From Pseudomonadota bacterium (lineage in GTDB: Bacteria; Pseudomonadota; Alphaproteobacteria; Rhizobiales; JAKPQE01), in contig JAKPQE010000034.1 of the NCBI GenBank assembly GCA_029572955.1, forward strand, positions 116,968 to 180,967: 64,000 nucleotides of DNA, given 5' to 3'. The translations under genes and the position numbers were made by a program. The notes under the pieces are model-generated. The model worked only from the letters and a program-made list of their open reading frames with translations. It was not told where the DNA came from and made no database searches. Of this stretch, positions 8,210 through 49,726 are shown in pieces (position 1 is the stretch's first letter; each line of letters begins with the position of its first letter).

Positions 8210-10384
8210 GTGACCGCAACAGCCGACATCGTCTCGGTGCTGGTGCCCCTCGCCATCGAGGGCACCTACAGCTATCGCGTGCCCGCCGGGCTGGCGCTGG
8301 CGCCGGGCGATATCGTCGAGGTGCCGGTCGGGCCGCGCAGCTATGTCGCCTGCGTCTGGGACGACCCGGCCGAGCCGATCGCGACGAGCCGGCTGAAGTC
8401 CGTCGCGGCCAAGTTCGATTGCCCGCCGCTGTCGGAAAACATGCGCCGCTTCGTCGACTGGGTGGCCAACTGGACTCTGGCGCCGAAGGGCATGGTGCTG
8501 CGCATGGTGCTGCGCGCCCCGGCAGCGCTCGAGCCGCCCGCCCCGCAGGTCGGCGTGCGCGCAACGGGCGAGGCTCCGGAACGACTGACCGATGCCCGCC
8601 GCCGCGTCCTCGACCTCATGGACGGCGGCCTTGCCTGGACGAAGCGCGGCCTTGCCGAGGCCGCCGGCGTCTCGCCCGGCGTCGTCGACGGCCTCGTCGC
8701 GCACGGCGCGCTCGAACTCGTCGAGCTGCCGCCGAAGCCGCTCTTTCCCCCGCTCGACCCGGACCATGCCCCACCCGACCTTTCCGACGGCCAGGGCGAG
8801 GCCGCCGGCCACCTCAGGGACAAGATCGCGGCCGACGCCTTCTCGGTCACCCTCGTCGACGGCGTCACCGGCTCGGGCAAGACCGAGGTCTATTTCGAGG
8901 CGATCGCCGAGGCGCTGCGCCGCAGGAAGCAGGTGCTGGTGCTCCTGCCGGAAATCGCGCTGACCCACGAATTCCTCGAGCGCTTCGACCGGCGCTTCGG
9001 CGCCCGGCCGGCCGAGTGGCATTCCGACCAGACCCCGGCGATGCGCGAGCGCATCTGGCGCGGCGTGATCTCCGGCGAGGTCCGCGCCGTCGTCGGCGCC
9101 CGCTCCGCCCTGTTCCTGCCGTTCCGCGACCTCGGCCTCATCGTCATCGACGAGGAACACGACATCGCCTACAAGCAGGAAGACCGCGTCGCCTACAATG
9201 CCCGCGACATGGCGGTGGTGCGCGGCCATCTCGCCGGCTTTCCGGTCGTGCTTTCCTCGGCGACGCCCTCGATCGAGAGCCGCAACAACGCCGATCGCGG
9301 CCGCTACGAGCGCATCGTGCTCGCCGAGCGCTTCAACAGCGGCACCGTCCCGCGCATCGAGGCGATCGACCTGCGCCGCGAGGCGCCGGAGCGCGGCCGC
9401 TTCCTCGCCCCGCGCCTCGTTTCCGAGATCGAGCGCACGCTCGGCGCCGGCGAACAGGCGCTGCTCTTCCTCAACCGTCGCGGCTATGCCCCGCTGACGC
9501 TCTGCCGCGCCTGCGGCCACCGCTTCGGCTGCCCGAACTGCTCGGCCTGGCTCGTCGACCACCGCTTCCGCGGCCGCCTCGTCTGCCATCATTGCGGCCA
9601 CGAGGAGCCGAAACCCCTCGCCTGTCCCGAATGCGGCGCCGAGGACAGCCTCGTTGCCTGCGGCCCCGGCGTCGAGCGCGTCGCCGAGGAGGTGAAGGCG
9701 CGCTTTCCCGACGCCCGCACCCTGGTGCTGTCGAGCGACCTGCCGGGCGGCGTGCGGCGCATGCGCATGGAGCTCGAATCCGTCGCCGCCGGCGAGGTCG
9801 ACATCATCGTCGGCACCCAGCTCGTCGCCAAGGGCCACAACTTCCCGGAACTCACCCTCGTCGGCGTCGTCGATGCCGATCTCGGCCTTGCCAATGGCGA
9901 CCCGCGCGCCGCCGAGCGCACTTTCCAGCTCCTCGCCCAGGTGACCGGACGCGCCGGCCGCGCCGGCCAGGTCGGCATCGGCTACGTCCAGACCCACGCG
10001 CCCGAGCACCCGGTGATCCAGGCCCTCGTCGCCGGCGACCGCGAGCGCTTCTACGAATACGAGATCGAGGCCCGCCGCGACGCCGGCCTGCCGCCGTTCG
10101 GCCGCCTCGCCAGCATCATCGTCTCGGCCGAGGACAGAAATGCCGCCCTCGCCTACGCCCGCGGCCTCGCGCGGGTCGCGCCCGTCGTCGACAAGGTCGC
10201 CGTGCTCGGTCCCGCCGAGGCGCCGCTCGCCATCGTGCGCGGCAAGTCGCGCTTCCGCCTCATCGTCCAGGCCGCCCTCGGCGTCGACCTGCAGGCCTAT
10301 CTGCGCCGCTGGCTCGCGCTCGCGCCACCGCCGCGCGGCGGCCTGCGCGTCGCCGTCGACGTCGATCCGCAGAGCTTCCTCTGA
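8210..10384 (+). CDS. priA: primosomal protein N' (replication restart helicase)
   Basis: 724 aa, GTG start. Walker A GVTGSGKTEV, DEEH box VIDEEHD, Cys-rich zinc region CRACGHRFGCPNCSAWLVDH...CHHCGH...CPECG. Confidence 0.92.
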   Translation: MTATADIVSVLVPLAIEGTYSYRVPAGLALAPGDIVEVPVGPRSYVACVWDDPAEPIATSRLKSVAAKFDCPPLSENMRRFVDWVANWTLAPKGMVLRMVLRAPAALEPPAPQVGVRATGEAPERLTDARRRVLDLMDGGLAWTKRGLAEAAGVSPGVVDGLVAHGALELVELPPKPLFPPLDPDHAPPDLSDGQGEAAGHLRDKIAADAFSVTLVDGVTGSGKTEVYFEAIAEALRRRKQVLVLLPEIALTHEFLERFDRRFGARPAEWHSDQTPAMRERIWRGVISGEVRAVVGARSALFLPFRDLGLIVIDEEHDIAYKQEDRVAYNARDMAVVRGHLAGFPVVLSSATPSIESRNNADRGRYERIVLAERFNSGTVPRIEAIDLRREAPERGRFLAPRLVSEIERTLGAGEQALLFLNRRGYAPLTLCRACGHRFGCPNCSAWLVDHRFRGRLVCHHCGHEEPKPLACPECGAEDSLVACGPGVERVAEEVKARFPDARTLVLSSDLPGGVRRMRMELESVAAGEVDIIVGTQLVAKGHNFPELTLVGVVDADLGLANGDPRAAERTFQLLAQVTGRAGRAGQVGIGYVQTHAPEHPVIQALVAGDRERFYEYEIEARRDAGLPPFGRLASIIVSAEDRNAALAYARGLARVAPVVDKVAVLGPAEAPLAIVRGKSRFRLIVQAALGVDLQAYLRRWLALAPPPRGGLRVAVDVDPQSFL

Positions 10385-10399
10385 GAGACCGGAAGCGGT

Positions 10400-11446
10400 T
10401 CAGGCGGCGCGGGCGAAAAGGCCGGCACCGACCTGGCCCGACGGATCGGCCGAGACGACCAGCACCGGGCCGCGGATGTCGTGCTTCTCGTCATAGGCAA
10501 GGCCGGCGAGCGTCTGCACCAGATTGAGGCCGCTCATCGTATTGCCGACGAAAGGAACGACCTCGAGGAGATTCGGCCGCGACCGGAAGAAGGTCGCCTC
10601 GACCGCCGCCGCCTCGTAGGCATCGACCAGCGGATGACCGAGACCGGAGGTGATCACCGTCGAGACGTCGCTCGCCTTGATGCCGGATTTCGCGAAAAGC
10701 TCGGTCAGGCGACCGACCAGCCGGCGCGGCGCCGCCTTCTCGGCGACCGCCGGATCGTGGTCGACGACGCAGCCGAGCACTTCGGCATGGATCCGGCGAC
10801 CGCCGACCCGGGCGTGGCTCTCGTCCTCGAGCACGAGGAAGACGCCGCATTCGGTCAGCGCCGCCCGCTTGCCGGTCGCGGCATTGCCGTCCCCGCCGCG
10901 CCGTGCCGAGGCCGGAAGCTCCTCGCCGGCACCGACCAGCAGCGTATGGGCGTGGCCCGCTTCCATCTCGTCGAGCGCCCGGCGCAACGCCAGCAGGCCG
11001 GAGAGATAGCCGCCGCTCACCTTGGCCGTCAGCGAGCGCATCCGGTACCAGATATCGCACATGCCGACCGGTGCGGGCAGCCTGAGGTTGACCGGGTTGG
11101 TCGCCGCGGCGAGGCAGATCGGACAGGGGCAGATCGAATCGGTCACCGCCGCCGCCAGCAGGGCGACCGAGGCATGGTGCGAGGCAAGCACGATGCCGAG
11201 CCGCTCGGCGGAGAGCTTCGCGATCTCGAGACCGGCATCGGCAAGGGCGGCCCGCGCCGCCTCGGCCGCGAGCGCCGTTCCGCGATCGAGGGCGCCCCGC
11301 TTGGTCGCGCCGTCCGGGGCCTCACCGGAAAAACCGGAGACCGCGCCGGTCCGGCCCGGCAGCCCGGTGTCGAAACCCGTGGCAAGGGCGTCGGGCGTCC
11401 GCCCGCCGGGCGAAATCAGCCCCCTGCCGGTGACGAATGCTTTCAT
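10400..11446 (-). CDS. beta-ketoacyl synthase-like protein, catalytic triad apparently degenerate
   Basis: ORF 10400..11458, start ATG 11446 (MKAFVTGRGLISPGG, KAS I/II-like N-terminus). Thiolase-fold blocks are recognisable, but the expected ACATS Cys region reads SLTAKVSGG and the two His motifs read TSGLGHP and VGNTMSGLN. Contains a CPCPIC insertion. Confidence 0.6.
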   Translation of the reverse strand: MKAFVTGRGLISPGGRTPDALATGFDTGLPGRTGAVSGFSGEAPDGATKRGALDRGTALAAEAARAALADAGLEIAKLSAERLGIVLASHHASVALLAAAVTDSICPCPICLAAATNPVNLRLPAPVGMCDIWYRMRSLTAKVSGGYLSGLLALRRALDEMEAGHAHTLLVGAGEELPASARRGGDGNAATGKRAALTECGVFLVLEDESHARVGGRRIHAEVLGCVVDHDPAVAEKAAPRRLVGRLTELFAKSGIKASDVSTVITSGLGHPLVDAYEAAAVEATFFRSRPNLLEVVPFVGNTMSGLNLVQTLAGLAYDEKHDIRGPVLVVSADPSGQVGAGLFARAA

Positions 11447-11890
11447 GGCCGATACCACTCCGCAAGCGGTAGGACTTGGCAGATACTCTCCAAGCGAGCA
11501 CTATCCACGCCAATTCACCCGAAATCCCTTCCGTCACGTAACTGAATGTAACTAGACGTTCGCATTAAGCCCGCAGGAAGTCGCAGAACTATTCTGGACC
11601 ACCTTTCGTCTGGAAATATTACAGAAAGTAAGTCGTAAATGATTGGTTTTAGACTGATATGAACTATGAGATTTCAGGGGGCGCAGGGAGCGAGATCAAC
11701 CCTGCCCCTTCGGGAAAGTTGCCGATTGTCAACGCGATCGCGTCAGACTAGACAAGGGCCGCGATCGCGGGCGGCGGGGCCTTGAAAGGAACCTCGCCGA
11801 TCCCGATCTGGAGCCGGAGGCCCCGCCGAACGGCCCCATTGCCCCCGCGGCCCGGCCCCTTCGAGTGCGAAACATCCTCGCGAGACAATC

Positions 11891-43092: not shown

Positions 43093-43884
43093 ATGACGGA
43101 GAGGGACGACCGCGCGATGGGTAGCACCCGGTCATTCTGCGACGACAATGCCGGCACGTTCGCCGTGGTGGCGGCCGCGGCGCTCGCCGTCGCCAGCCTC
43201 GTCTTCCACATCGAATCGTGGATCGATCTCGCGCTCGCCCGGCTCTTCTTCGATCCGGCGAGCAGCGTCGGACCGTTCCCGGCGAACGCCGATCCGGTGC
43301 TCCGCATCCTGCGCGAGGTCGGCCTGAAGCTGCCGCCGCTCGCCATGGTCCTCCTCGGCGTCGTCGCGCTCGCCGGCCTGTTCCGCCCCGGCGCCAGGAC
43401 ACCGGTCTCGGTCCGCGACGCGCTCTGGATGCTGACGACGGCGGCCCTTGCCAACGGCCTCCTCGTCAATCTCGTCCTCAAGGAACACTGGGGCCGCGCC
43501 CGGCCGCACCAGACGATCGAATTCGGCGGCGCCGGCGTCTTCACGCCGGCCTGGACGATCGGCGATGCCTGCGCCAGCAACTGCTCGTTCGTCTCCGGCG
43601 AGGCGGCGAACGCCTTCTGGATGCTGACCGCGCTCTGTCTCGTGCCGGCCGGCTACCGGGCACCGGCGGGCGCCTTCCTCGTCGTCCTTGCCGGCACCGT
43701 CGCCTTCAACCGCGTCGCCTTCGGCGGCCACTATCTCTCCGACGTCGTCCTCTCCGGCCTGATGGTACTGACGATCGCGGCGGTCCTGCGCCTCTTCTTC
43801 CGCCCCGGCGGGCCGCGCAGCGCCGACGGCAACGGCTTCTGGCGCCGCCTGCGCGCCGGCTATTCGGCCGCGGCCGGGGATTGA
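43093..43884 (+). CDS. PAP2 superfamily phosphatase (membrane)
   Basis: 263 aa. KEHWGRARP...SFVSGEA...GGHYLSD, the tripartite acid-phosphatase motif. Confidence 0.8.
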   Translation: MTERDDRAMGSTRSFCDDNAGTFAVVAAAALAVASLVFHIESWIDLALARLFFDPASSVGPFPANADPVLRILREVGLKLPPLAMVLLGVVALAGLFRPGARTPVSVRDALWMLTTAALANGLLVNLVLKEHWGRARPHQTIEFGGAGVFTPAWTIGDACASNCSFVSGEAANAFWMLTALCLVPAGYRAPAGAFLVVLAGTVAFNRVAFGGHYLSDVVLSGLMVLTIAAVLRLFFRPGGPRSADGNGFWRRLRAGYSAAAGD

Positions 43885-43891
43885 AACCCGG

Positions 43892-45352
43892 CTACCGCCG
43901 CTGCTCGATGCGGTCGATGAACCAGCGCGTCAGGCGGATCCAGAGGTCGTCCTTGGTCATCGCGTCCTCGACCCCGTGCTCGATGTTCGGGTTGTCGTTG
44001 ACCTCGATGACGTAGATGCCGCCGTTTGTCTCCTTGATGTCGACGCCATAGAGCCCGCGGCCGATGAGCCGCGCCGCGCGCACGCCGATGTCGATCACCG
44101 CCGGCGGCGCATCGTCGAGCGAGAACGCCTTGAAGCCGCCCTCCAGCGGCTCGCCGCCGGTGTCGTGCTTGACGATCTGCCAGTGCTCCTTGGCCATCAG
44201 ATACTGCACGACGAACAACGGCTCGCCGTCGAGCACGCCGACCCGCCAGTCGAAGCTCGTCGGCATGAACTTCTGGGCGATGAGCAGGTCGGTCTCCTCG
44301 AACCACTCGTCGAGGAGCTTGGCGAAGGCCGCGCGGTTGTCGACCTTCTTGACGCCACGCGAGAACGAGCCGTCCGGGATCTTGACCACCAGCGGATAGC
44401 CGAGCGCCGCCTCGGCCTTGTCGATGTCGGTCGTCGAGGCCAGCATCACCGTCGGCGGCATCGGCAGGCCGTGCGCCGTCAGCAGCTCGTTGAGATAGAG
44501 CTTGTTGGTGCAGCGGATCATCGACACCGGATCGTCGATCACCGGCATGCCCTCCTGCTGGGCGCGGCGGGCGAAGCGGAAGGTGTGATTGTCGATCGAC
44601 GTCGTCTCGCGAATGAACAGCGCGTCGAACTCGGCGAGCCGCGGCAGGTCGCGCCTGGTGATCGGCTCGACCTCGACGCCGAGCTTCTCGGCGACCCGCG
44701 CCCAGTGCTTCAGCGAGGCGACCGAGGTCGGCGGCAGCTCTTCCTTGGGGTCGTGCAGCGCCGCGAAGGTGTAGCGCAGCGGTTCCTTGGCCTTCGGCCG
44801 CCGCCATTCGCGCTTGGTATAGGCGTGCAGGCTGTCGTGGAAGAAGCCGACCTCGTCCGGATGAAGCTTCGAGAGCGACACCGGCTTCAGCCGCTCGATC
44901 GCGTTCCACTCGCCGGCCTTGATCGTCACTTCGAGGATCGGGCAGCGGAACCAGTCGAAGGTGAGCCGCCCGAAGCGCTCGAAGCGCGGATCGGCGACGC
45001 CGCCGAAACAGACGAGCATGCGCGCCGGCAGGTCGCCGCCGCCTTTCCGCAGGCTCTTGTTGAGCGCGTCCTCGAGCTCCGGCAGGGCGTGCTCGTAGAG
45101 CCCGCGCGCGCCGAGTTCGAGCATCGTCTCGACCGTCGGCACGACGCGATGGCCGCGCGCCTCGGCGAGGAGCGACGCATAGTAACCCTGGCTCTGATAG
45201 GCGTAGGACCGCGAGAGATTGACGATCTTCGGGCGGTCGCCGCGAAACAGTTGCGGCCGTGCGAGATATTCCTTGGTGGTGATCACCTTGTGCGGGGTAT
45301 CCGCATTCGGCAGGTCTTTGGGGAAGTCGACGACGACGACCCAACCGGGCAT
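43892..45352 (-). CDS. RimK-family ATP-grasp ligase with N-terminal RLAN-type domain
   Basis: ORF 43892..45526 trimmed to ATG 45352 (MPGWVVVVDFPKD). The N-terminal ~190 aa is RLAN-like (IVNLSRSYAYQSQGYYASLLAEARGH). C-terminal ATP-grasp (YPLVVKIPDGSFSRGV, LIAQKFMP, GLYGVDIKE...IYVIEVNDNPN). Confidence 0.8.
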   Translation of the reverse strand: MPGWVVVVDFPKDLPNADTPHKVITTKEYLARPQLFRGDRPKIVNLSRSYAYQSQGYYASLLAEARGHRVVPTVETMLELGARGLYEHALPELEDALNKSLRKGGGDLPARMLVCFGGVADPRFERFGRLTFDWFRCPILEVTIKAGEWNAIERLKPVSLSKLHPDEVGFFHDSLHAYTKREWRRPKAKEPLRYTFAALHDPKEELPPTSVASLKHWARVAEKLGVEVEPITRRDLPRLAEFDALFIRETTSIDNHTFRFARRAQQEGMPVIDDPVSMIRCTNKLYLNELLTAHGLPMPPTVMLASTTDIDKAEAALGYPLVVKIPDGSFSRGVKKVDNRAAFAKLLDEWFEETDLLIAQKFMPTSFDWRVGVLDGEPLFVVQYLMAKEHWQIVKHDTGGEPLEGGFKAFSLDDAPPAVIDIGVRAARLIGRGLYGVDIKETNGGIYVIEVNDNPNIEHGVEDAMTKDDLWIRLTRWFIDRIEQRR

Positions 45353-45356
45353 GTGG

Positions 45357-46457
45357 TTATCCTCTCGTGACGACGATGGTCGCCTTGAGCCCGTCTCGGC
45401 CCCAGCGCGCCATGCGGTCGAATTCGCCATAGGGAATGGGCAAATTTGCGGCATCGGCGAGCACTTCGCCGCGCTTCTTTTCCACCCAGGGATCGTGGAT
45501 GAAAATGTGCCGCCCGTCGTCGCCATGGGCGATGACCCAGTGCGGCACCTTCTTGCCGAACATGCGGTAGCCCGAGATCAGCACGATGGCGACGGCGCCA
45601 CCCCGCAGCGCCTCGGCGGTGCGCTCGGTGCCGAGCGCCTCGTAGGTAACGGGAATGTCCATCGCCGCCGCCCGCGCCCGGAAGCACTCCTGGGCGATCC
45701 GCATTACCCGGCGGTTCTCGGCGTTGCGCACCGTCTCGAGGAACAGCGGCCCGTCGGCATTGATGTAGACGTGCGGCCGAAGGCCGTGCTCGGCGAGCGT
45801 GACGGCAAGGCCGAACGGCTCGCAGCCGCCGAGCCCCGTGGTCATGAAGATCGTCGTCGCCTCGCGCCACAGCCGCACCTCGGTGCGCTCGTCGAGCTCG
45901 AAGCCCGGATCGAAATGGGCGCAGGCCATCATCAGGCAGGCCGGGCCGCAGGTGAATTCCGTCGTCTGCTCGTAGTAGCGCGTCGTCACCTTGGGCGCGG
46001 CGCCGAGCCTCAGCAGCTTCTCGAAGCGCAGCGCGTCGGCATGGTCCTCGTAATAGTCGAGATAGCGGCCGAAGCGGCGGTAGCCGGCCCGCTCGTAAAG
46101 CGCGATCGCCGGGAGATTGTCCTCGCGCACCTCGAGGCGCAGCAGAATGCGGTCGCGATCGAACGCCGCCCGCTCCGCTTCGGCGAGGAGCAGCCCCCCG
46201 AGCCCGCGGCCGGCGCGGTCCGGCGCGACGGCGATCGAATAGAGCCGGGCGAGCGCCGTGCCGGCGCGAAAGAGCAGCATGGCGTAGCCGGCGACCTTGC
46301 CGTCGATCTCGGCGACGATGCAGGCCGCCGTCGGCGCGGCGACGAGGCTGCGGAACGAGCGCCGCGAGATGCGGTCGGTCGAGAAGGCGGCATCCTCGAT
46401 GGCGACGAGCGCGTCGACATCGCCAAGGCCGGCGGGACGAAAGACTGGGGTATCCAT
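45357..46457 (-). CDS. GNAT N-acetyltransferase fused to papain-like (C39-type) cysteine peptidase domain
   Basis: ORF 45357..46622 trimmed to ATG 46457 (MDTPVFRPAG). GNAT core IAVAPDRAGRGLGGLLL. C-terminal YEQTTEFTCGPACLMMA (Gln/Cys) and KKVPHWVIAHG...IHDP (His/Asp). Stop lies 4 nt before the ATP-grasp start. Confidence 0.78.
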   Translation of the reverse strand: MDTPVFRPAGLGDVDALVAIEDAAFSTDRISRRSFRSLVAAPTAACIVAEIDGKVAGYAMLLFRAGTALARLYSIAVAPDRAGRGLGGLLLAEAERAAFDRDRILLRLEVREDNLPAIALYERAGYRRFGRYLDYYEDHADALRFEKLLRLGAAPKVTTRYYEQTTEFTCGPACLMMACAHFDPGFELDERTEVRLWREATTIFMTTGLGGCEPFGLAVTLAEHGLRPHVYINADGPLFLETVRNAENRRVMRIAQECFRARAAAMDIPVTYEALGTERTAEALRGGAVAIVLISGYRMFGKKVPHWVIAHGDDGRHIFIHDPWVEKKRGEVLADAANLPIPYGEFDRMARWGRDGLKATIVVTRG

Positions 46458-46581: not shown

Positions 46582-46600
46582 AAAAAGCCCCGCCGGGGGC
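46582..46600 (-). terminator. short rho-independent terminator after tRNA-Glu
   Basis: The minus strand reads gcccc-cggc-ggggc followed by ttttt, about 35 nt downstream of the tRNA 3' end. Confidence 0.5.
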
Positions 46601-46633
46601 GAGGCTTGCGAACAACGATCATGCGCCGAGAAT

Positions 46634-46709
46634 TGGCACCCCGTAGGGGAATCGAACCCCTGTTTCCGCCGTGAGAGGGCGGCGTCCTGGGCCGCTAGAC
46701 GAACGGGGC
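46634..46709 (-). tRNA. tRNA-Glu (anticodon CUC), CCA encoded
   Basis: Reverse complement GCCCCGUUCGUCUAGCGGCCCAGGACGCCGCCCUCUCACGGCGGAAACAGGGGUUCGAUUCCCCUACGGGGUGCCA folds as a cloverleaf. The anticodon loop CU-CUC-AC is close to the canonical tRNA-Glu architecture. Confidence 0.9.
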
Positions 46710-46929
46710 AGCGGCTCATCGCTTGGCGACGGCGGTTCGTATACCGCCGACCGCCGACGAGTTCAAGCCCAATCGTCTCGCCCCGGGCGCACGAGTTTCG
46801 CCACCCGCCTCGGGTCCGGGCGAACTGCCACCACCGCGACGCGGCGCTGTTCCCGCACCACCGCCGCCGCCATTGCCATCCTCGGGGAAGGCTCTATCCT
46901 CGGCCTCCCCAAGGGTTCGGACGCCGGAC

Positions 46930-48612
46930 ATGCGCATTCTGTTTCTCGTTCACAGCTTCAATTCGCTTGCCCAGCGCCTCTATGTCGAACTCGCCGAAGC
47001 CGGTCACGAGCTCAGCGTCGAATACGACATCAACGACGAGACGACCCGCGAGGCGGTCGCCCTGTTCAGGCCGGACGTCGTGCTCGCGCCGTTCCTGAAG
47101 CGCGCCATCCCCGAGGATGTCTGGCGCGCCCTGCCCTGCCTCGTCGTCCATCCCGGCGTGCGCGGCGATCGCGGCCCGAACGCCCTCGACTGGGCGATCC
47201 TCCGGCGCGAGCAGAGCTGGGGCGTGACGATCATCGAGGCCGAGGCCGAGATGGACGCCGGCCCGGTCTGGGCCTGGCGTGAGTTCGAGATGCGCCATGC
47301 GCCGAAATCGAGCATCTACCGCAACGAGGTGACCGAGACGGCGGTCATCACCGTCTTCGAGGCGCTCGCGATGATCGAGGCGCGCGACTTCCGCCCGACC
47401 CGGCTCGACCTGACGAAGCGCGAGATCCAGGGCACCGAGAACCCGCCGGTGCGCCAGGCCGACCGCCGCATCAACTGGCATCGCGACACCTCGATGCGTG
47501 TCGCCCGCATGATCCATTCCGGCGACGGCACGCCCGGCCTCCTCGACGAGATCGACGGCGTTCCCTACTACCACTACGACGCCCGGCCGTGGACCGGCCG
47601 CGAGCATGTGCTCGGCGCGCGCGGCGCCATCGTCGCCAAGAGTGGCCCGGCGATCGCCCGCGGCACCCGCAACGGCCTCGTCTGGATCGGCCATCTCAGC
47701 GAAAAGCGCGAGCGCGCCCTGAAACTGCCGGCGACGACCGTGCTCGCCGGCCGCCTCGACGGCGTGCCCGAGATCGAGGGCGGCTATCGCGAGATCTGGT
47801 ACGAGGAGGAGGGCCAGGTCGGCTACCTGCATTTCGCCTTCTACAACGGCGCGATGAGCACCGACCAGTGCCGCCGCCTCGCCGCCGCCTACAAGGAGGC
47901 CCGGGCCCGGCCGACCCGCGTGCTCGTGCTGATGGGCGGCGCCGACTTCTGGTCGAACGGCATCCATCTCGGCACCATCGAGGCCGCCGAAAGCCCGGCC
48001 GACGAAAGCCTCGCCAACATCGAGGCGATGGACGACCTCGCCCTCGCGATCCTGACCACCGAGGACAAGATCGTCGTCTCGGCCCTGCGCGGCAATGCCG
48101 GCGCCGGCGGCGCGTTTCTCGCCCTTGCCGCGGACGAGGTCTGGGCGCGCTCAGGCATCGTCCTCAATCCCCATTACAAGGACATGGGCAACCTCTACGG
48201 TTCGGAATACTGGACCTACCTGTTGCCGAAGCGGGTCGGCGCCGAGACGGCCGCCGCGATCGCCGCGCGCCGACTGCCGATCGGCGTCGCCGAAGCGCTG
48301 CGCCTGAAGCTCGTCGACCGCGCCCTGCCGAACGAGCGCACCGCCGCCGAAGCGGAGATCCGCCAGCGCGCCCGGGAGCTGGCGACCCGCGAGGGCTTCT
48401 CCTCACGCCTCTGGGACAAGCGCATCGCCCGCGGCCGCGACGAGAAGGAAAAGCCCCTCGCCGCCTACCGCGCCGAAGAACTGGAGAAGATGCATCTCAA
48501 TTTCTACGGCTTCGATTCGAGCTACCACGTCGCCCGCTTCAACTTCATCCACAAGGTGCCGAAGTCGAGGACGCCACTGACGCTGGCAAGGCATCGGGCG
48601 AAGAAGGGGTGA
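46930..48612 (+). CDS. HypX/HoxX-like protein (N-terminal formyltransferase domain + C-terminal enoyl-CoA hydratase/crotonase domain)
   Basis: Real part of ORF 46723..48612. Start ATG 46930 (MRILFLVHSFNSLAQRL). Formyltransferase motifs LVVHPGVRGDRGPNALDWAI and EMDAGPVW. Crotonase motifs VLVLMGGADFWSNGIHL and GNAGAGGAFLALAAD. Confidence 0.75.
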   Translation: MRILFLVHSFNSLAQRLYVELAEAGHELSVEYDINDETTREAVALFRPDVVLAPFLKRAIPEDVWRALPCLVVHPGVRGDRGPNALDWAILRREQSWGVTIIEAEAEMDAGPVWAWREFEMRHAPKSSIYRNEVTETAVITVFEALAMIEARDFRPTRLDLTKREIQGTENPPVRQADRRINWHRDTSMRVARMIHSGDGTPGLLDEIDGVPYYHYDARPWTGREHVLGARGAIVAKSGPAIARGTRNGLVWIGHLSEKRERALKLPATTVLAGRLDGVPEIEGGYREIWYEEEGQVGYLHFAFYNGAMSTDQCRRLAAAYKEARARPTRVLVLMGGADFWSNGIHLGTIEAAESPADESLANIEAMDDLALAILTTEDKIVVSALRGNAGAGGAFLALAADEVWARSGIVLNPHYKDMGNLYGSEYWTYLLPKRVGAETAAAIAARRLPIGVAEALRLKLVDRALPNERTAAEAEIRQRARELATREGFSSRLWDKRIARGRDEKEKPLAAYRAEELEKMHLNFYGFDSSYHVARFNFIHKVPKSRTPLTLARHRAKKG

Positions 48613-48615
48613 CGC

Positions 48616-49377
48616 TCAGCGCCCCCAACGCATCCCGGCGATCCTGGGGTCCGCGGCAAAGGCGTCGCGGTCGAATTCGAGGGCGAGCTTCGGGAACTCC
48701 CGCAGGGCAAGCACGCCCGAAGCACTCGGCCTGATCCGCCAGGTCTGTCGGTCGACCGGAGCCGGGCGGGCGAAGGCCGAGCAGGCAAGGACCGCGACAT
48801 TGGCCCGATGCCGGGGATCGCGGACCGATTCATAACGCAGAACCTGCGCCCCGGCGTCGCCCGCGCCATCGGCAAGCCGTTGGCTGGCTTCGTAGTTCGT
48901 CGGATCGACGAAATCCGCCCGATCGCGATCGAGCGGCGGGCGCGTCAGATCCAGCGCAGCGTCCACGCGGATATCGACGGCAAACGCGGAATATTCGGCC
49001 GCGTTGCTCGGCCACGGCGTGTCCGGCGACTCGGCGTAGAACAGCAGGCGATAGAAGGCCATTTCGGCCGCGGTCGTCTCCACCTCTTCGCCGGCATAGA
49101 AGACGCCGGGCGTCGGGCCGGCGCGGCGGAACCTGGAACCCACGGGATAGATCGCGCCATACCGGAACGGCGTTGCGAGAAGATAGTCGAGACCGGCACA
49201 GTCCGGCGGCAGGCGCGGCTTGGTCGTCTCCAGCAGGTCTTCCAGGAGTTCCTGCTCGGCCCGGCTGTCGACCAGCTTCAGCGTCGACACCTGATGCTGC
49301 GCCTCGACCATGCGCCAGCCCGTGCCCGTATAGGGGCCGAGTTCAGATGCGAGCGCGGCGAGCGTCCAGATAGCCAA
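48616..49377 (-). CDS. RES domain toxin (NAD+-targeting RES family)
   Basis: In frame of ORF 48616..49563. The start is uncertain (TTG 49377 overlapping the antitoxin end, or ATG 49311). GWRMVEAQHQVSTLKLVDSRAEQELLEDLLE...ATPFRYG...GSRFR...YESVRD. Confidence 0.78.
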   Translation of the reverse strand: MAIWTLAALASELGPYTGTGWRMVEAQHQVSTLKLVDSRAEQELLEDLLETTKPRLPPDCAGLDYLLATPFRYGAIYPVGSRFRRAGPTPGVFYAGEEVETTAAEMAFYRLLFYAESPDTPWPSNAAEYSAFAVDIRVDAALDLTRPPLDRDRADFVDPTNYEASQRLADGAGDAGAQVLRYESVRDPRHRANVAVLACSAFARPAPVDRQTWRIRPSASGVLALREFPKLALEFDRDAFAADPRIAGMRWGR

Positions 49378-49726
49378 GGATTTCCACCAGCCCCGTGATC
49401 GTGTCGAGCCGGTCGATGGGCCGACCGTCGAGCACACTGTTGAACCCCCGCAGCCACGACCGGGCAACCGCCTCGTCGCCACCGACGATCGCATCGAGCG
49501 AGCGGAACAGTCTGACCAGCAGCAAGCCGAGCTCGAAAGCCTTGTCGCCCGGCTTGAGGCCATATTGGCCGTTCTGCATGCGCGAAATCGTCGGCTCCGA
49601 GAGCCCGAGAATACCCGCGAGCTGCCGGTTGGACAGCCCGAGGATATTGGAGGTCCTTGTCACCGCCTTGGTAACGACGGCGGATTCGACTGCCTTTTGA
49701 TCCGGATTCGACGCGGAGGATGGCAT
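49343..49726 (-). CDS. Xre-family antitoxin with DUF2384 (MbcA/ParS-type) toxin-binding domain
   Basis: 127 aa. HTH ILGLSNRQLAGILGLSEPTISRMQNG. C-terminal ARSWLRGFNSVLDGRPIDRL. Immediately upstream of, and overlapping, the RES gene. Confidence 0.8.
   Translation of the reverse strand: MPSSASNPDQKAVESAVVTKAVTRTSNILGLSNRQLAGILGLSEPTISRMQNGQYGLKPGDKAFELGLLLVRLFRSLDAIVGGDEAVARSWLRGFNSVLDGRPIDRLDTITGLVEILGYLDARRARI

Follow-up and report, generated by a model that had tools for sequence, protein, structure and literature searches.

What a bacterium might build, or dismantle, with a RimK-like ligase, an acetyltransferase and a papain-like peptidase encoded side by side is the question raised by positions 43,892 to 46,457 of the 64,000-nt stretch of Rhizobiales DNA analyzed here (the window, from contig JAKPQE010000034.1, whose coordinates are used throughout except where a plasmid or a locus number is given). 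This segment holds two minus-strand genes: gene A, whose product unites a GNAT acetyltransferase and a papain-like cysteine peptidase of the DUF3335 family in one chain, and gene B, which encodes an ATP-grasp ligase preceded by an RLAN domain. An earlier interpretation, made from the nucleotide sequence without database searches (hereafter the sequence-only reading), had proposed that the pair builds, acylates and trims a peptide or protein tag. The results presented below make it very likely that A and B constitute a co-transcribed module combining a carboxylate-amine ligase of the RimK/LysX clade, an acetyl-CoA-dependent N-acetyltransferase and an active papain-like amidase. More tentatively, and with somewhat less than even confidence, we propose that a short N-acetylated peptide, lengthened from its C-terminus by glutamate-type residues, is both produced and turned over by the pair.

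Domain architecture and conservation of catalytic residues

Homologs of A number more than 4000, the nearest of them being 99% identical and located in a metagenome-assembled genome of the Hyphomicrobiales. Pfam searches identified a GNAT domain (PF00583) in its N-terminal region (E=2e-18; 67.4 bits against a threshold of 20.7), and the acetyl-CoA loop that the sequence-only reading had pointed out in this protein is both present (A82-G83-R84-G85-L86-G87) and conserved. Across 62 diverse full-length A homologs, G85 is retained in 50, G/A87 in 52, E109 in 54 and Y121 in 46, while the position usually occupied by R/Q in the loop consensus (Q/R-x-x-G-x-G/A), which is Ala82 in A, is Arg in 35 of the sequences. 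The domain aligns to the RimI structure 2cnm, with the matching E109 and Y121 conserved, and the RimI equivalog model of NCBIfam (TIGR01575) scores 83.5 bits on A, just below its cut-off of 86.4. Phosphinothricin (E=7e-7), nourseothricin and tabtoxin-resistance acetyltransferases are matched about as strongly as RimI.

The C-terminal region of A corresponds to the DUF3335 family ('Peptidase_C39 like', PF11814), which is matched over 203 of its 206 model positions (E=2e-76; 256.4 bits against 25). The true C39 model (PF03412) remains below threshold (19 versus 22 bits) and matches only residues 160-190. The C39-like peptidase of the sequence-only reading hence stands as a papain-like enzyme with a conserved Gln/Cys/His/Asp set, but as a member of DUF3335 and not as a bona fide C39 peptidase. 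Among the same 62 homologs, Q164 is found in 61, C170 in 53 (with Ser in four), H306 in 59 and D322 in 58, and E193 and W197 are invariant.

An AlphaFold (AF2) model of residues 148-366, with a predicted local distance difference test (pLDDT) score of 86 and a predicted template modeling score (pTM) of 0.88, places the Cys at the N-terminus of a helix and the His and Asp on adjacent strands. Foldseek searches against the PDB with this model returned 28 matches at E<=1e-3, all of them papain-like (E from 1e-5 to 1e-3, template modeling (TM) score of about 0.5). These include the C39 domains of PCAT1 and ComA, the C39-like protein 3ERV, the pseudomurein endoisopeptidase PeiR, the phytochelatin synthase Alr0975, staphopain and papain, and the C39 domain of an AMS/PCAT transporter is likewise among the top structural matches. 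With the predicted fold and the Gln/Cys/His/Asp set in place, the domain can be assigned, at the level of a structural model, to the papain-like (clan CA) peptidases. Some DUF3335 proteins of about 350 aa (P0341, P0343, P0349, P0356, P0372 and P0374) carry an N-terminal region of about 140 aa without Pfam match in place of the GNAT domain, and one of them has two tandem DUF3335 domains.

Gene B has at least 8000 homologs, named 'RimK family protein'. The assignment of an RLAN domain together with an ATP-grasp domain of RimK-like type to its product was confirmed by hidden Markov model (HMM) searches, with RLAN (PF14401) matching at E=4e-42 (143.7 bits against a gathering threshold of 25), N-terminal to a RimK ATP-grasp match (PF08443) at residues 283-460 (E=1e-7). 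B aligns to E. coli RimK (5zct/4iwx, E=2e-13) in such a way that K100, K141, D248, E260 and N262 of RimK pair with K284, K324, D438, E450 and N452. Among 70 diverse homologs, conservation reaches at least 95% both at these positions and in the G328-S331-G333 loop, in agreement with the full set of nucleotide and Mg motifs read earlier from the sequence. The closest solved relatives of the ATP-grasp region are RimK and LysX/ArgX.

The best NCBIfam matches of B are LysX (86 bits against a cut-off of 276) and rimK_fam (TIGR00768; 84.7 against 143.4), and further matches include MptN (66 against 350) and the RimK equivalog (NF007764; 45 against 331). What the known enzymes of these four families have in common is the formation of an amide bond with glutamate or alpha-aminoadipate. 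The model for Ngg (TIGR03103), an enzyme of N-acetylglutaminylglutamine amide (NAGGN) synthesis whose ligase activity resides in its ATP-grasp domain, is not among the best 25 of the 35 NCBIfam matches of B, and scores 22.3 bits on A against a cut-off of 569. With 486 aa and an N-terminal RLAN domain, B is unlike the single-module RimK of about 300 aa.

The RLAN domain presents a core of residues that are at least 95% conserved in the 70 sequences (N45, L46, Y52, G56, Y57, Y58, S60, L61, L62, E64, A65, R66 and P72). No solved homolog was identified by sequence, including a profile search against PDB sequences, and the AF2 model of residues 1-240 reached a pLDDT of only 68. The best Foldseek matches of this model were all ATP-grasp enzymes (ArgX, PsnB, MdnB and RimK) but weak ones (E>=2.6e-3, TM 0.29). 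By eye, the RLAN stretch KIVNLSRSY.YQS.GYY.SLLAEARGHRV.P matches the pre-ATP-grasp element present in RimK and also in B, and alignment of both elements with hhalign gave P=0.12 in the register chosen by eye and P=0.02 in another register, with reversed controls at 0.15-0.18. The RLAN core and its order of secondary structure elements resemble the pre-ATP-grasp and central part of ATP-grasp enzymes, with none of the tests being significant, and offer only a hint that RLAN may be a degenerate duplicate of a pre-ATP-grasp/ATP-grasp module.

Given that the catalytic residues are intact and conserved and that the papain-like fold is predicted with confidence, the three activities are probably all live. 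The HMM searches upheld the domain assignments, the catalytic residues were retained on alignment and no characterized ortholog came to light, the three points on which the sequence-only reading had staked its proposal. The coordinates of these domains and of the other features of the locus are collected in Table 1.

Table 1. Features of the A-B locus in the window and importer-linked DUF3335 paralogs in plasmid-derived loci.
Feature	Coordinates	Strand	Description
Gene A	46457..45357	minus	366 aa, MDTPVF...VVTRG; fusion of GNAT and DUF3335 papain-like cysteine peptidase; open reading frame (ORF)
Gene B	45352..43892	minus	486 aa, ATG start, MPGWVVVV...; RLAN and RimK/LysX-clade ATP-grasp ligase; ORF
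GNAT domain (A)	46008..46457	minus	about residues 1-150; Pfam match 35-126
DUF3335 papain-like domain (A)	45369..45977	minus	residues 161-363; catalytic Q164, C170, H306, D322
RLAN domain (B)	44834..45274	minus	residues 27-173; PF14401, E=4e-42
ATP-grasp catalytic region (B)	43919..44641	minus	residues 238-478; K284, K324, G328-S331-G333 loop, D438, E450, N452
A-B junction	45353..45366	minus	Shine-Dalgarno, TAA stop and 4-nt spacer; direct sequence reading
tRNA-Glu(CUC)	46634-46709	minus	ARAGORN and Rfam; upstream boundary, outside the A-B system
Terminator-like hairpin	46607-46585	minus	10-bp GC-rich stem and T-run, after tRNA-Glu(CUC)
PAP2-family gene	43093-43884	convergent with B	end 7 nt from the B stop
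Importer-linked DUF3335 paralogs	L081 6944-7612; L083 6944-7642; L082 6542-7660; L084 6404-7645		last gene of importer operons

The gene pair as a conserved unit

A genome scan with one genome per species detected relatives of A in at least 405 genomes, and synteny was counted in the best 80 loci, in which identity ranges from 42 to 86%. These loci span the Alpha-, Beta- and Gammaproteobacteria, Leptospiraceae, Phycisphaerales, Bacteroidota, Gemmatimonadota and Acidiferrales, reported as at least six phyla. B adjoins A in 72 of them: 58 keep the A-to-B order on the same strand, with gaps of 6-171 nt, 12 present the genes divergently (six directly adjacent and six with one intervening gene) and two convergently. 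Among the eight loci without B, a contig end interrupts two, and the other six truly lack the gene within several kb; no alternative ligase was found in the loci without B. Loci whose A is closer to the window protein also tend to have a closer B, the two identities being correlated across loci (r=0.87). This linkage goes far beyond chance and supports a shared function for both proteins.

In the window, the sequence-only reading had described two minus-strand genes 4 nt apart and read them as an operon, and both descriptions agree with the data. The TAA stop of A (45359-45357) is separated from B by the 4-nt spacer 'ccac', and a Shine-Dalgarno sequence for B (GAGAGGA, 45366-45360) lies within the last codons of A; this short spacing and internal ribosome-binding sequence, together with the recurrent adjacency of both genes, sustain the operon.

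In addition, a search of plasmid records identified full-length A homologs on chromids of Azospirillum brasilense and A. argentinense and on a Tistrella plasmid. Plasmid p1 of A. brasilense Sp7 (775531-776625 and downstream; locus L085, 6001-8594) carries an intact A-to-B pair with a 45-nt gap and identities of 48 and 49%, in a region that bears no annotation in the plasmid-collection record. This strain thus offers a genetically tractable host of a homologous pair.

Stand-alone DUF3335 paralogs and substrate class

The plasmid-record search also returned DUF3335 paralogs that lack a GNAT domain, are 29-31% identical to A and end operons encoding ATP-binding cassette (ABC) importers. In two instances (Sinorhizobium meliloti AK83 pSINME02 and a Microvirga plasmid) the paralog is the last gene of an SBP_bac_5 (Opp/Dpp-type) importer operon, after genes for a binding protein, two ATPases and two permeases, and in two others, on two Streptomyces plasmids, it directly follows siderophore-type ABC importer genes. 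Enzymes encoded at the end of importer operons normally process the imported small molecule in the cytoplasm, and the position of these paralogs hence argues modestly for small peptide-like compounds as the substrates of the DUF3335 family. By analogy, this favors a small peptide over a protein tag as the substrate of the window pair.

Clustering of flanking ORFs in the 80 loci brought out neither a third gene conserved throughout nor a small ORF fit to be a tag or a precursor. A gene encoding a DUF2817 protein (PF10994, E=3e-78) nonetheless immediately precedes A, in the same orientation, in 11 of the 80 (e.g. L046 6878-7996, L052 1161-2279, L063 6748-7986 and L068 6622-7986). In these loci B is divergent from the DUF2817 gene in six cases and not nearby in four, and the remaining locus is truncated. 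The HxxE and NRNF motifs of the DUF2817 proteins apparently resemble those of M14 carboxypeptidases.

Proposed function and competing explanations

In the proposed mechanism, B would convert a carboxylate into an acyl-phosphate and then couple it to an amino acid through the alpha-amino group of the latter. The most likely amino acid is L-glutamate or a close analog, and RLAN would probably hold the substrate or the growing product. The GNAT domain of A would operate as an acetyl-CoA-dependent, RimI-like alpha-amine acetyltransferase. The peptidase domain, which shares a chain with it and should consequently act on the same molecule, would limit or recycle the product, a role that the M14-like DUF2817 carboxypeptidase may share in some lineages. 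Such a product might be a small molecule comparable to N-acetyl-aspartyl-glutamate or N-acetyl-glutaminyl-glutamine. The data establish the gene structure, the domain identities, the intact and conserved catalytic residues, the modeled papain-like fold and the tight synteny, from which we infer the chemistry and order of the steps, the identity of the amino acid and the small size of the substrate. The lean towards a small peptide stems from the importer-linked paralogs, from the lack of a linked tag gene and from the recurrence in NAGGN synthesis of a design uniting GNAT, ATP-grasp and peptidase, and it draws further on the presence of phytochelatin synthase among the structural neighbors of A and on the M14-like gene upstream of A in 11 loci.

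Several observations weigh against this proposal. Full-text literature searches returned no experimental study of the pair or of its orthologs, and no product, substrate or phenotype for any homolog, consistent with the statement of the sequence-only reading that neither substrate nor product is established. The GNAT domain most resembles the protein N-terminal acetyltransferase RimI, and the ATP-grasp region the protein-modifying RimK and LysX, so both would fit a protein substrate equally well. RLAN is left without an assigned role, and in at least six loci A occurs with no B in its vicinity. Furthermore, given their low identity to A and their lack of a GNAT domain, the context of the importer-linked paralogs may not transfer to the pair.

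These likenesses to protein-modifying enzymes carry the strongest of the competing explanations, which is possible but doubtful. By analogy with the action of RimK on ribosomal protein S6, B would attach at least one amino acid to a protein encoded by an unlinked gene, either at its C-terminus or on an acidic side chain, while the peptidase would trim the addition in the manner of RimB and the GNAT domain would acetylate a free amine of the same protein. The RimI score just under its cut-off, the kinship of the ATP-grasp region with RimK and LysX/ArgX and the polypeptide-cutting C39 domains that are the nearest structural neighbors of the A peptidase are all in line with protein tailing, and RimK has its own dedicated trimming protease in RimB (PMC11957791). 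Conversely, B falls far below both RimK cut-offs and carries the additional RLAN domain, no candidate substrate is conserved nearby and the DUF3335 paralogs are linked to small-molecule importers. However, rimK itself is not known to be linked to the gene of its substrate, and tailing is therefore not weakened by the want of such a gene beside the pair. That the pair represents a second widespread and reversible protein-tailing system, present in hundreds of species from several phyla, in which the ligase would extend the C-terminus of an unlinked protein and the GNAT-peptidase fusion would cap and trim it, is accordingly a claim that we rate as unlikely, if far from negligible.

A decidedly less probable explanation is salvage or detoxification. 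A would here cleave and then N-acetylate a peptide-like toxin, an antimetabolite or an imported peptide, and B would re-ligate or modify the released amino acid, following by analogy the logic of microcin C immunity (MccF/MccE) or of the phosphinothricin and tabtoxin acetyltransferases. The similarity of the GNAT domain to such resistance enzymes would fit this scheme, as would the location of DUF3335 paralogs after importers, and a hydrolase joined to an acetyltransferase suggests cleavage followed by capping of the new amine. However, no conserved transporter or toxin-biosynthesis genes were found around the A-B pair, no defense-protein model of PADLOC matched A or B, and the tight linkage to an ATP-grasp ligase would be left unexplained. 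[quoted passage not shown]

The three-activity module is present in thousands of bacterial genomes, of which the window provides a clean and typical example. If the preferred interpretation as an N-acetylated oligopeptide pathway is true, it would add a class of metabolites (osmolyte, store or signal) to bacterial physiology, and N-acetyl-oligoglutamate metabolites would be an undescribed class, as novel as protein tailing; if protein tailing is true, the pair would constitute a new reversible modification system beside RimK/RimB.

Locus layout and neighboring genes

Longer mechanical ORFs start at 46622 for A and 45526 for B, and the shorter versions are preferred because homologs align from their first residue; the 46622 start is further disfavored by its overlap with the hairpin that follows the tRNA gene. 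By eye, neither N-terminus presents an apparent signal peptide or membrane segment, and both proteins are for that reason taken to be cytoplasmic. The upstream tRNA-Glu and a terminator, placed by the sequence-only reading at 46582-46600, were recovered, the latter as the hairpin and T-run listed in Table 1. A promoter of the pair's own had also been claimed, and here the analysis did not concur: the 128 nt that separate the hairpin from the start codon of A yielded no sigma-70-like site, so that a promoter is inferred only. No riboswitch or other known RNA was found upstream of the pair. As a whole, the earlier interpretation is supported in its domains, catalytic sets and operon, with the peptidase placed in DUF3335, and not in its separate promoter; its proposal of a peptide or protein tag, suitably hedged, stays a prediction.

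Two neighboring genes were considered as functional partners and rejected. The tRNA-Glu gene was considered as a possible supplier of aminoacyl-tRNA to the GNAT domain, but among the other loci such a gene precedes A in the closest relative (L001) alone, and its adjacency is hence coincidental; four tRNA calls in other loci correspond to other species of tRNA and are not upstream of A, and the retained acetyl-CoA loop speaks against an aminoacyl-tRNA donor. The argE gene, divergent from A in 22 loci of Competibacteraceae and Chromatiales (e.g. L025 2721-3890 and L026 6732-7934), encodes a genuine acetylornithine deacetylase of the M20 type (535 bits versus a cut-off of 460), and its restriction to related gammaproteobacterial lineages indicates that the arrangement is most likely inherited synteny and not the mark of a third component. 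In a single locus without a ligase gene (L055), a gene for an 800-aa mechanosensitive channel of the MscS family (9103-11505) lies directly downstream of A in convergent orientation, an arrangement of note only for the osmolyte hypothesis.

The other genes flanking the pair in the window encode a LysE protein, a DsbA-like protein, a formyltransferase/enoyl-CoA hydratase fusion and a RES-Xre toxin-antitoxin system, and present no functional link to it. The formyltransferase N-domain and enoyl-CoA hydratase fusion (46933-48612, plus strand, in an ORF opening at 46723) has a HypX/HoxX-like architecture, is divergent from the tRNA-Glu gene and has an uncertain start codon. The toxin-antitoxin pair (48616-49726, minus strand) comprises a RES toxin (PF08808, E=9e-26) and an overlapping antitoxin of the Xre/MbcA/ParS type (PF09722, PF20432). 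The GC content of the operon (0.67) equals that of its surroundings, and recent horizontal transfer was rejected on this ground.

Relationship to known systems

As judged from their sequences, A and B belong to known superfamilies and to two Pfam families, but to no characterized orthologous group, as none of the NCBIfam models attained its curated cut-off on either protein. The system that polyglutamylates S6 (RimABK) shares with the pair the ATP and Mg residues of a RimK-type ATP-grasp domain, a cytoplasmic location and the combination of a ligase with a trimming protease. RimB removes glutamates and stimulates the synthesis of poly-glutamate by RimK (PMC11957791). B departs from RimK in its low model scores and in the 185 additional residues of RLAN, and the protease of the pair is a papain-like cysteine enzyme fused to a GNAT domain instead of the retropepsin RimB, with no RimA.

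In the NAGGN operon, a GNAT-family enzyme N-acetylates one glutamine and forms a peptide bond to a second, and a peptidase is included (PMC8070244). The likeness of this system (Ngg, AsnO and peptidase) to the window pair resides in the coupling of an N-acetylating GNAT domain with peptide-bond formation and a peptidase, parts that in the known system make an N-acetylated acidic or amide dipeptide. The arrangement differs, since here GNAT is fused to the peptidase and ATP-grasp to RLAN, and no asparagine synthase gene (asnO) was found beside the pair. The peptidases also belong to different classes, papain-like in A and a glutamyl aminopeptidase, listed by NCBIfam as M42, in NAGGN synthesis. 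In mammals, NAT8L and RIMKLA/B together make N-acetyl-aspartyl-glutamate.

The C39 peptidases of bacteriocin processing (PCAT/ComA) share with A the papain-like fold and the pattern of Gln...Cys, His and Asp-Pro motifs, whereas the domain of A exceeds them in size by about 80 residues, lacks a fusion to an ABC transporter and has no evident double-glycine substrate. Phytochelatin synthase, represented by the structural neighbor Alr0975, is a papain-like cysteine enzyme that acts on a small non-ribosomal peptide, glutathione, and glutathionylspermidine synthetase/amidase (Gsp) joins an ATP-dependent ligase and a papain-like amidase acting on the same small molecule. The similarity of A to these enzymes is limited to a distant fold relationship (TM about 0.5, 10% identity), and thiol peptides find no support here.

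The window genes differ in nothing from typical full-length members of the Pfam families RLAN (PF14401) and DUF3335 (PF11814). A 2023 classification of papain-like peptidases places DUF3335 close to PF09778 (GUCD1-like) and describes it as often fused to GNAT (PMC10318531). It cites the 2009 comparative-genomic amidoligase survey of Iyer et al.; the architecture is already in Pfam and, on that account, was computationally predicted in 2009. The pair is therefore a typical member of a catalogued, computationally predicted family and has no new architecture, to which the present analysis adds the M14-like DUF2817 gene that joins it in 11 loci, the stand-alone DUF3335 paralogs that end ABC-importer operons and the recognition of the neighboring tRNA-Glu as a coincidence.

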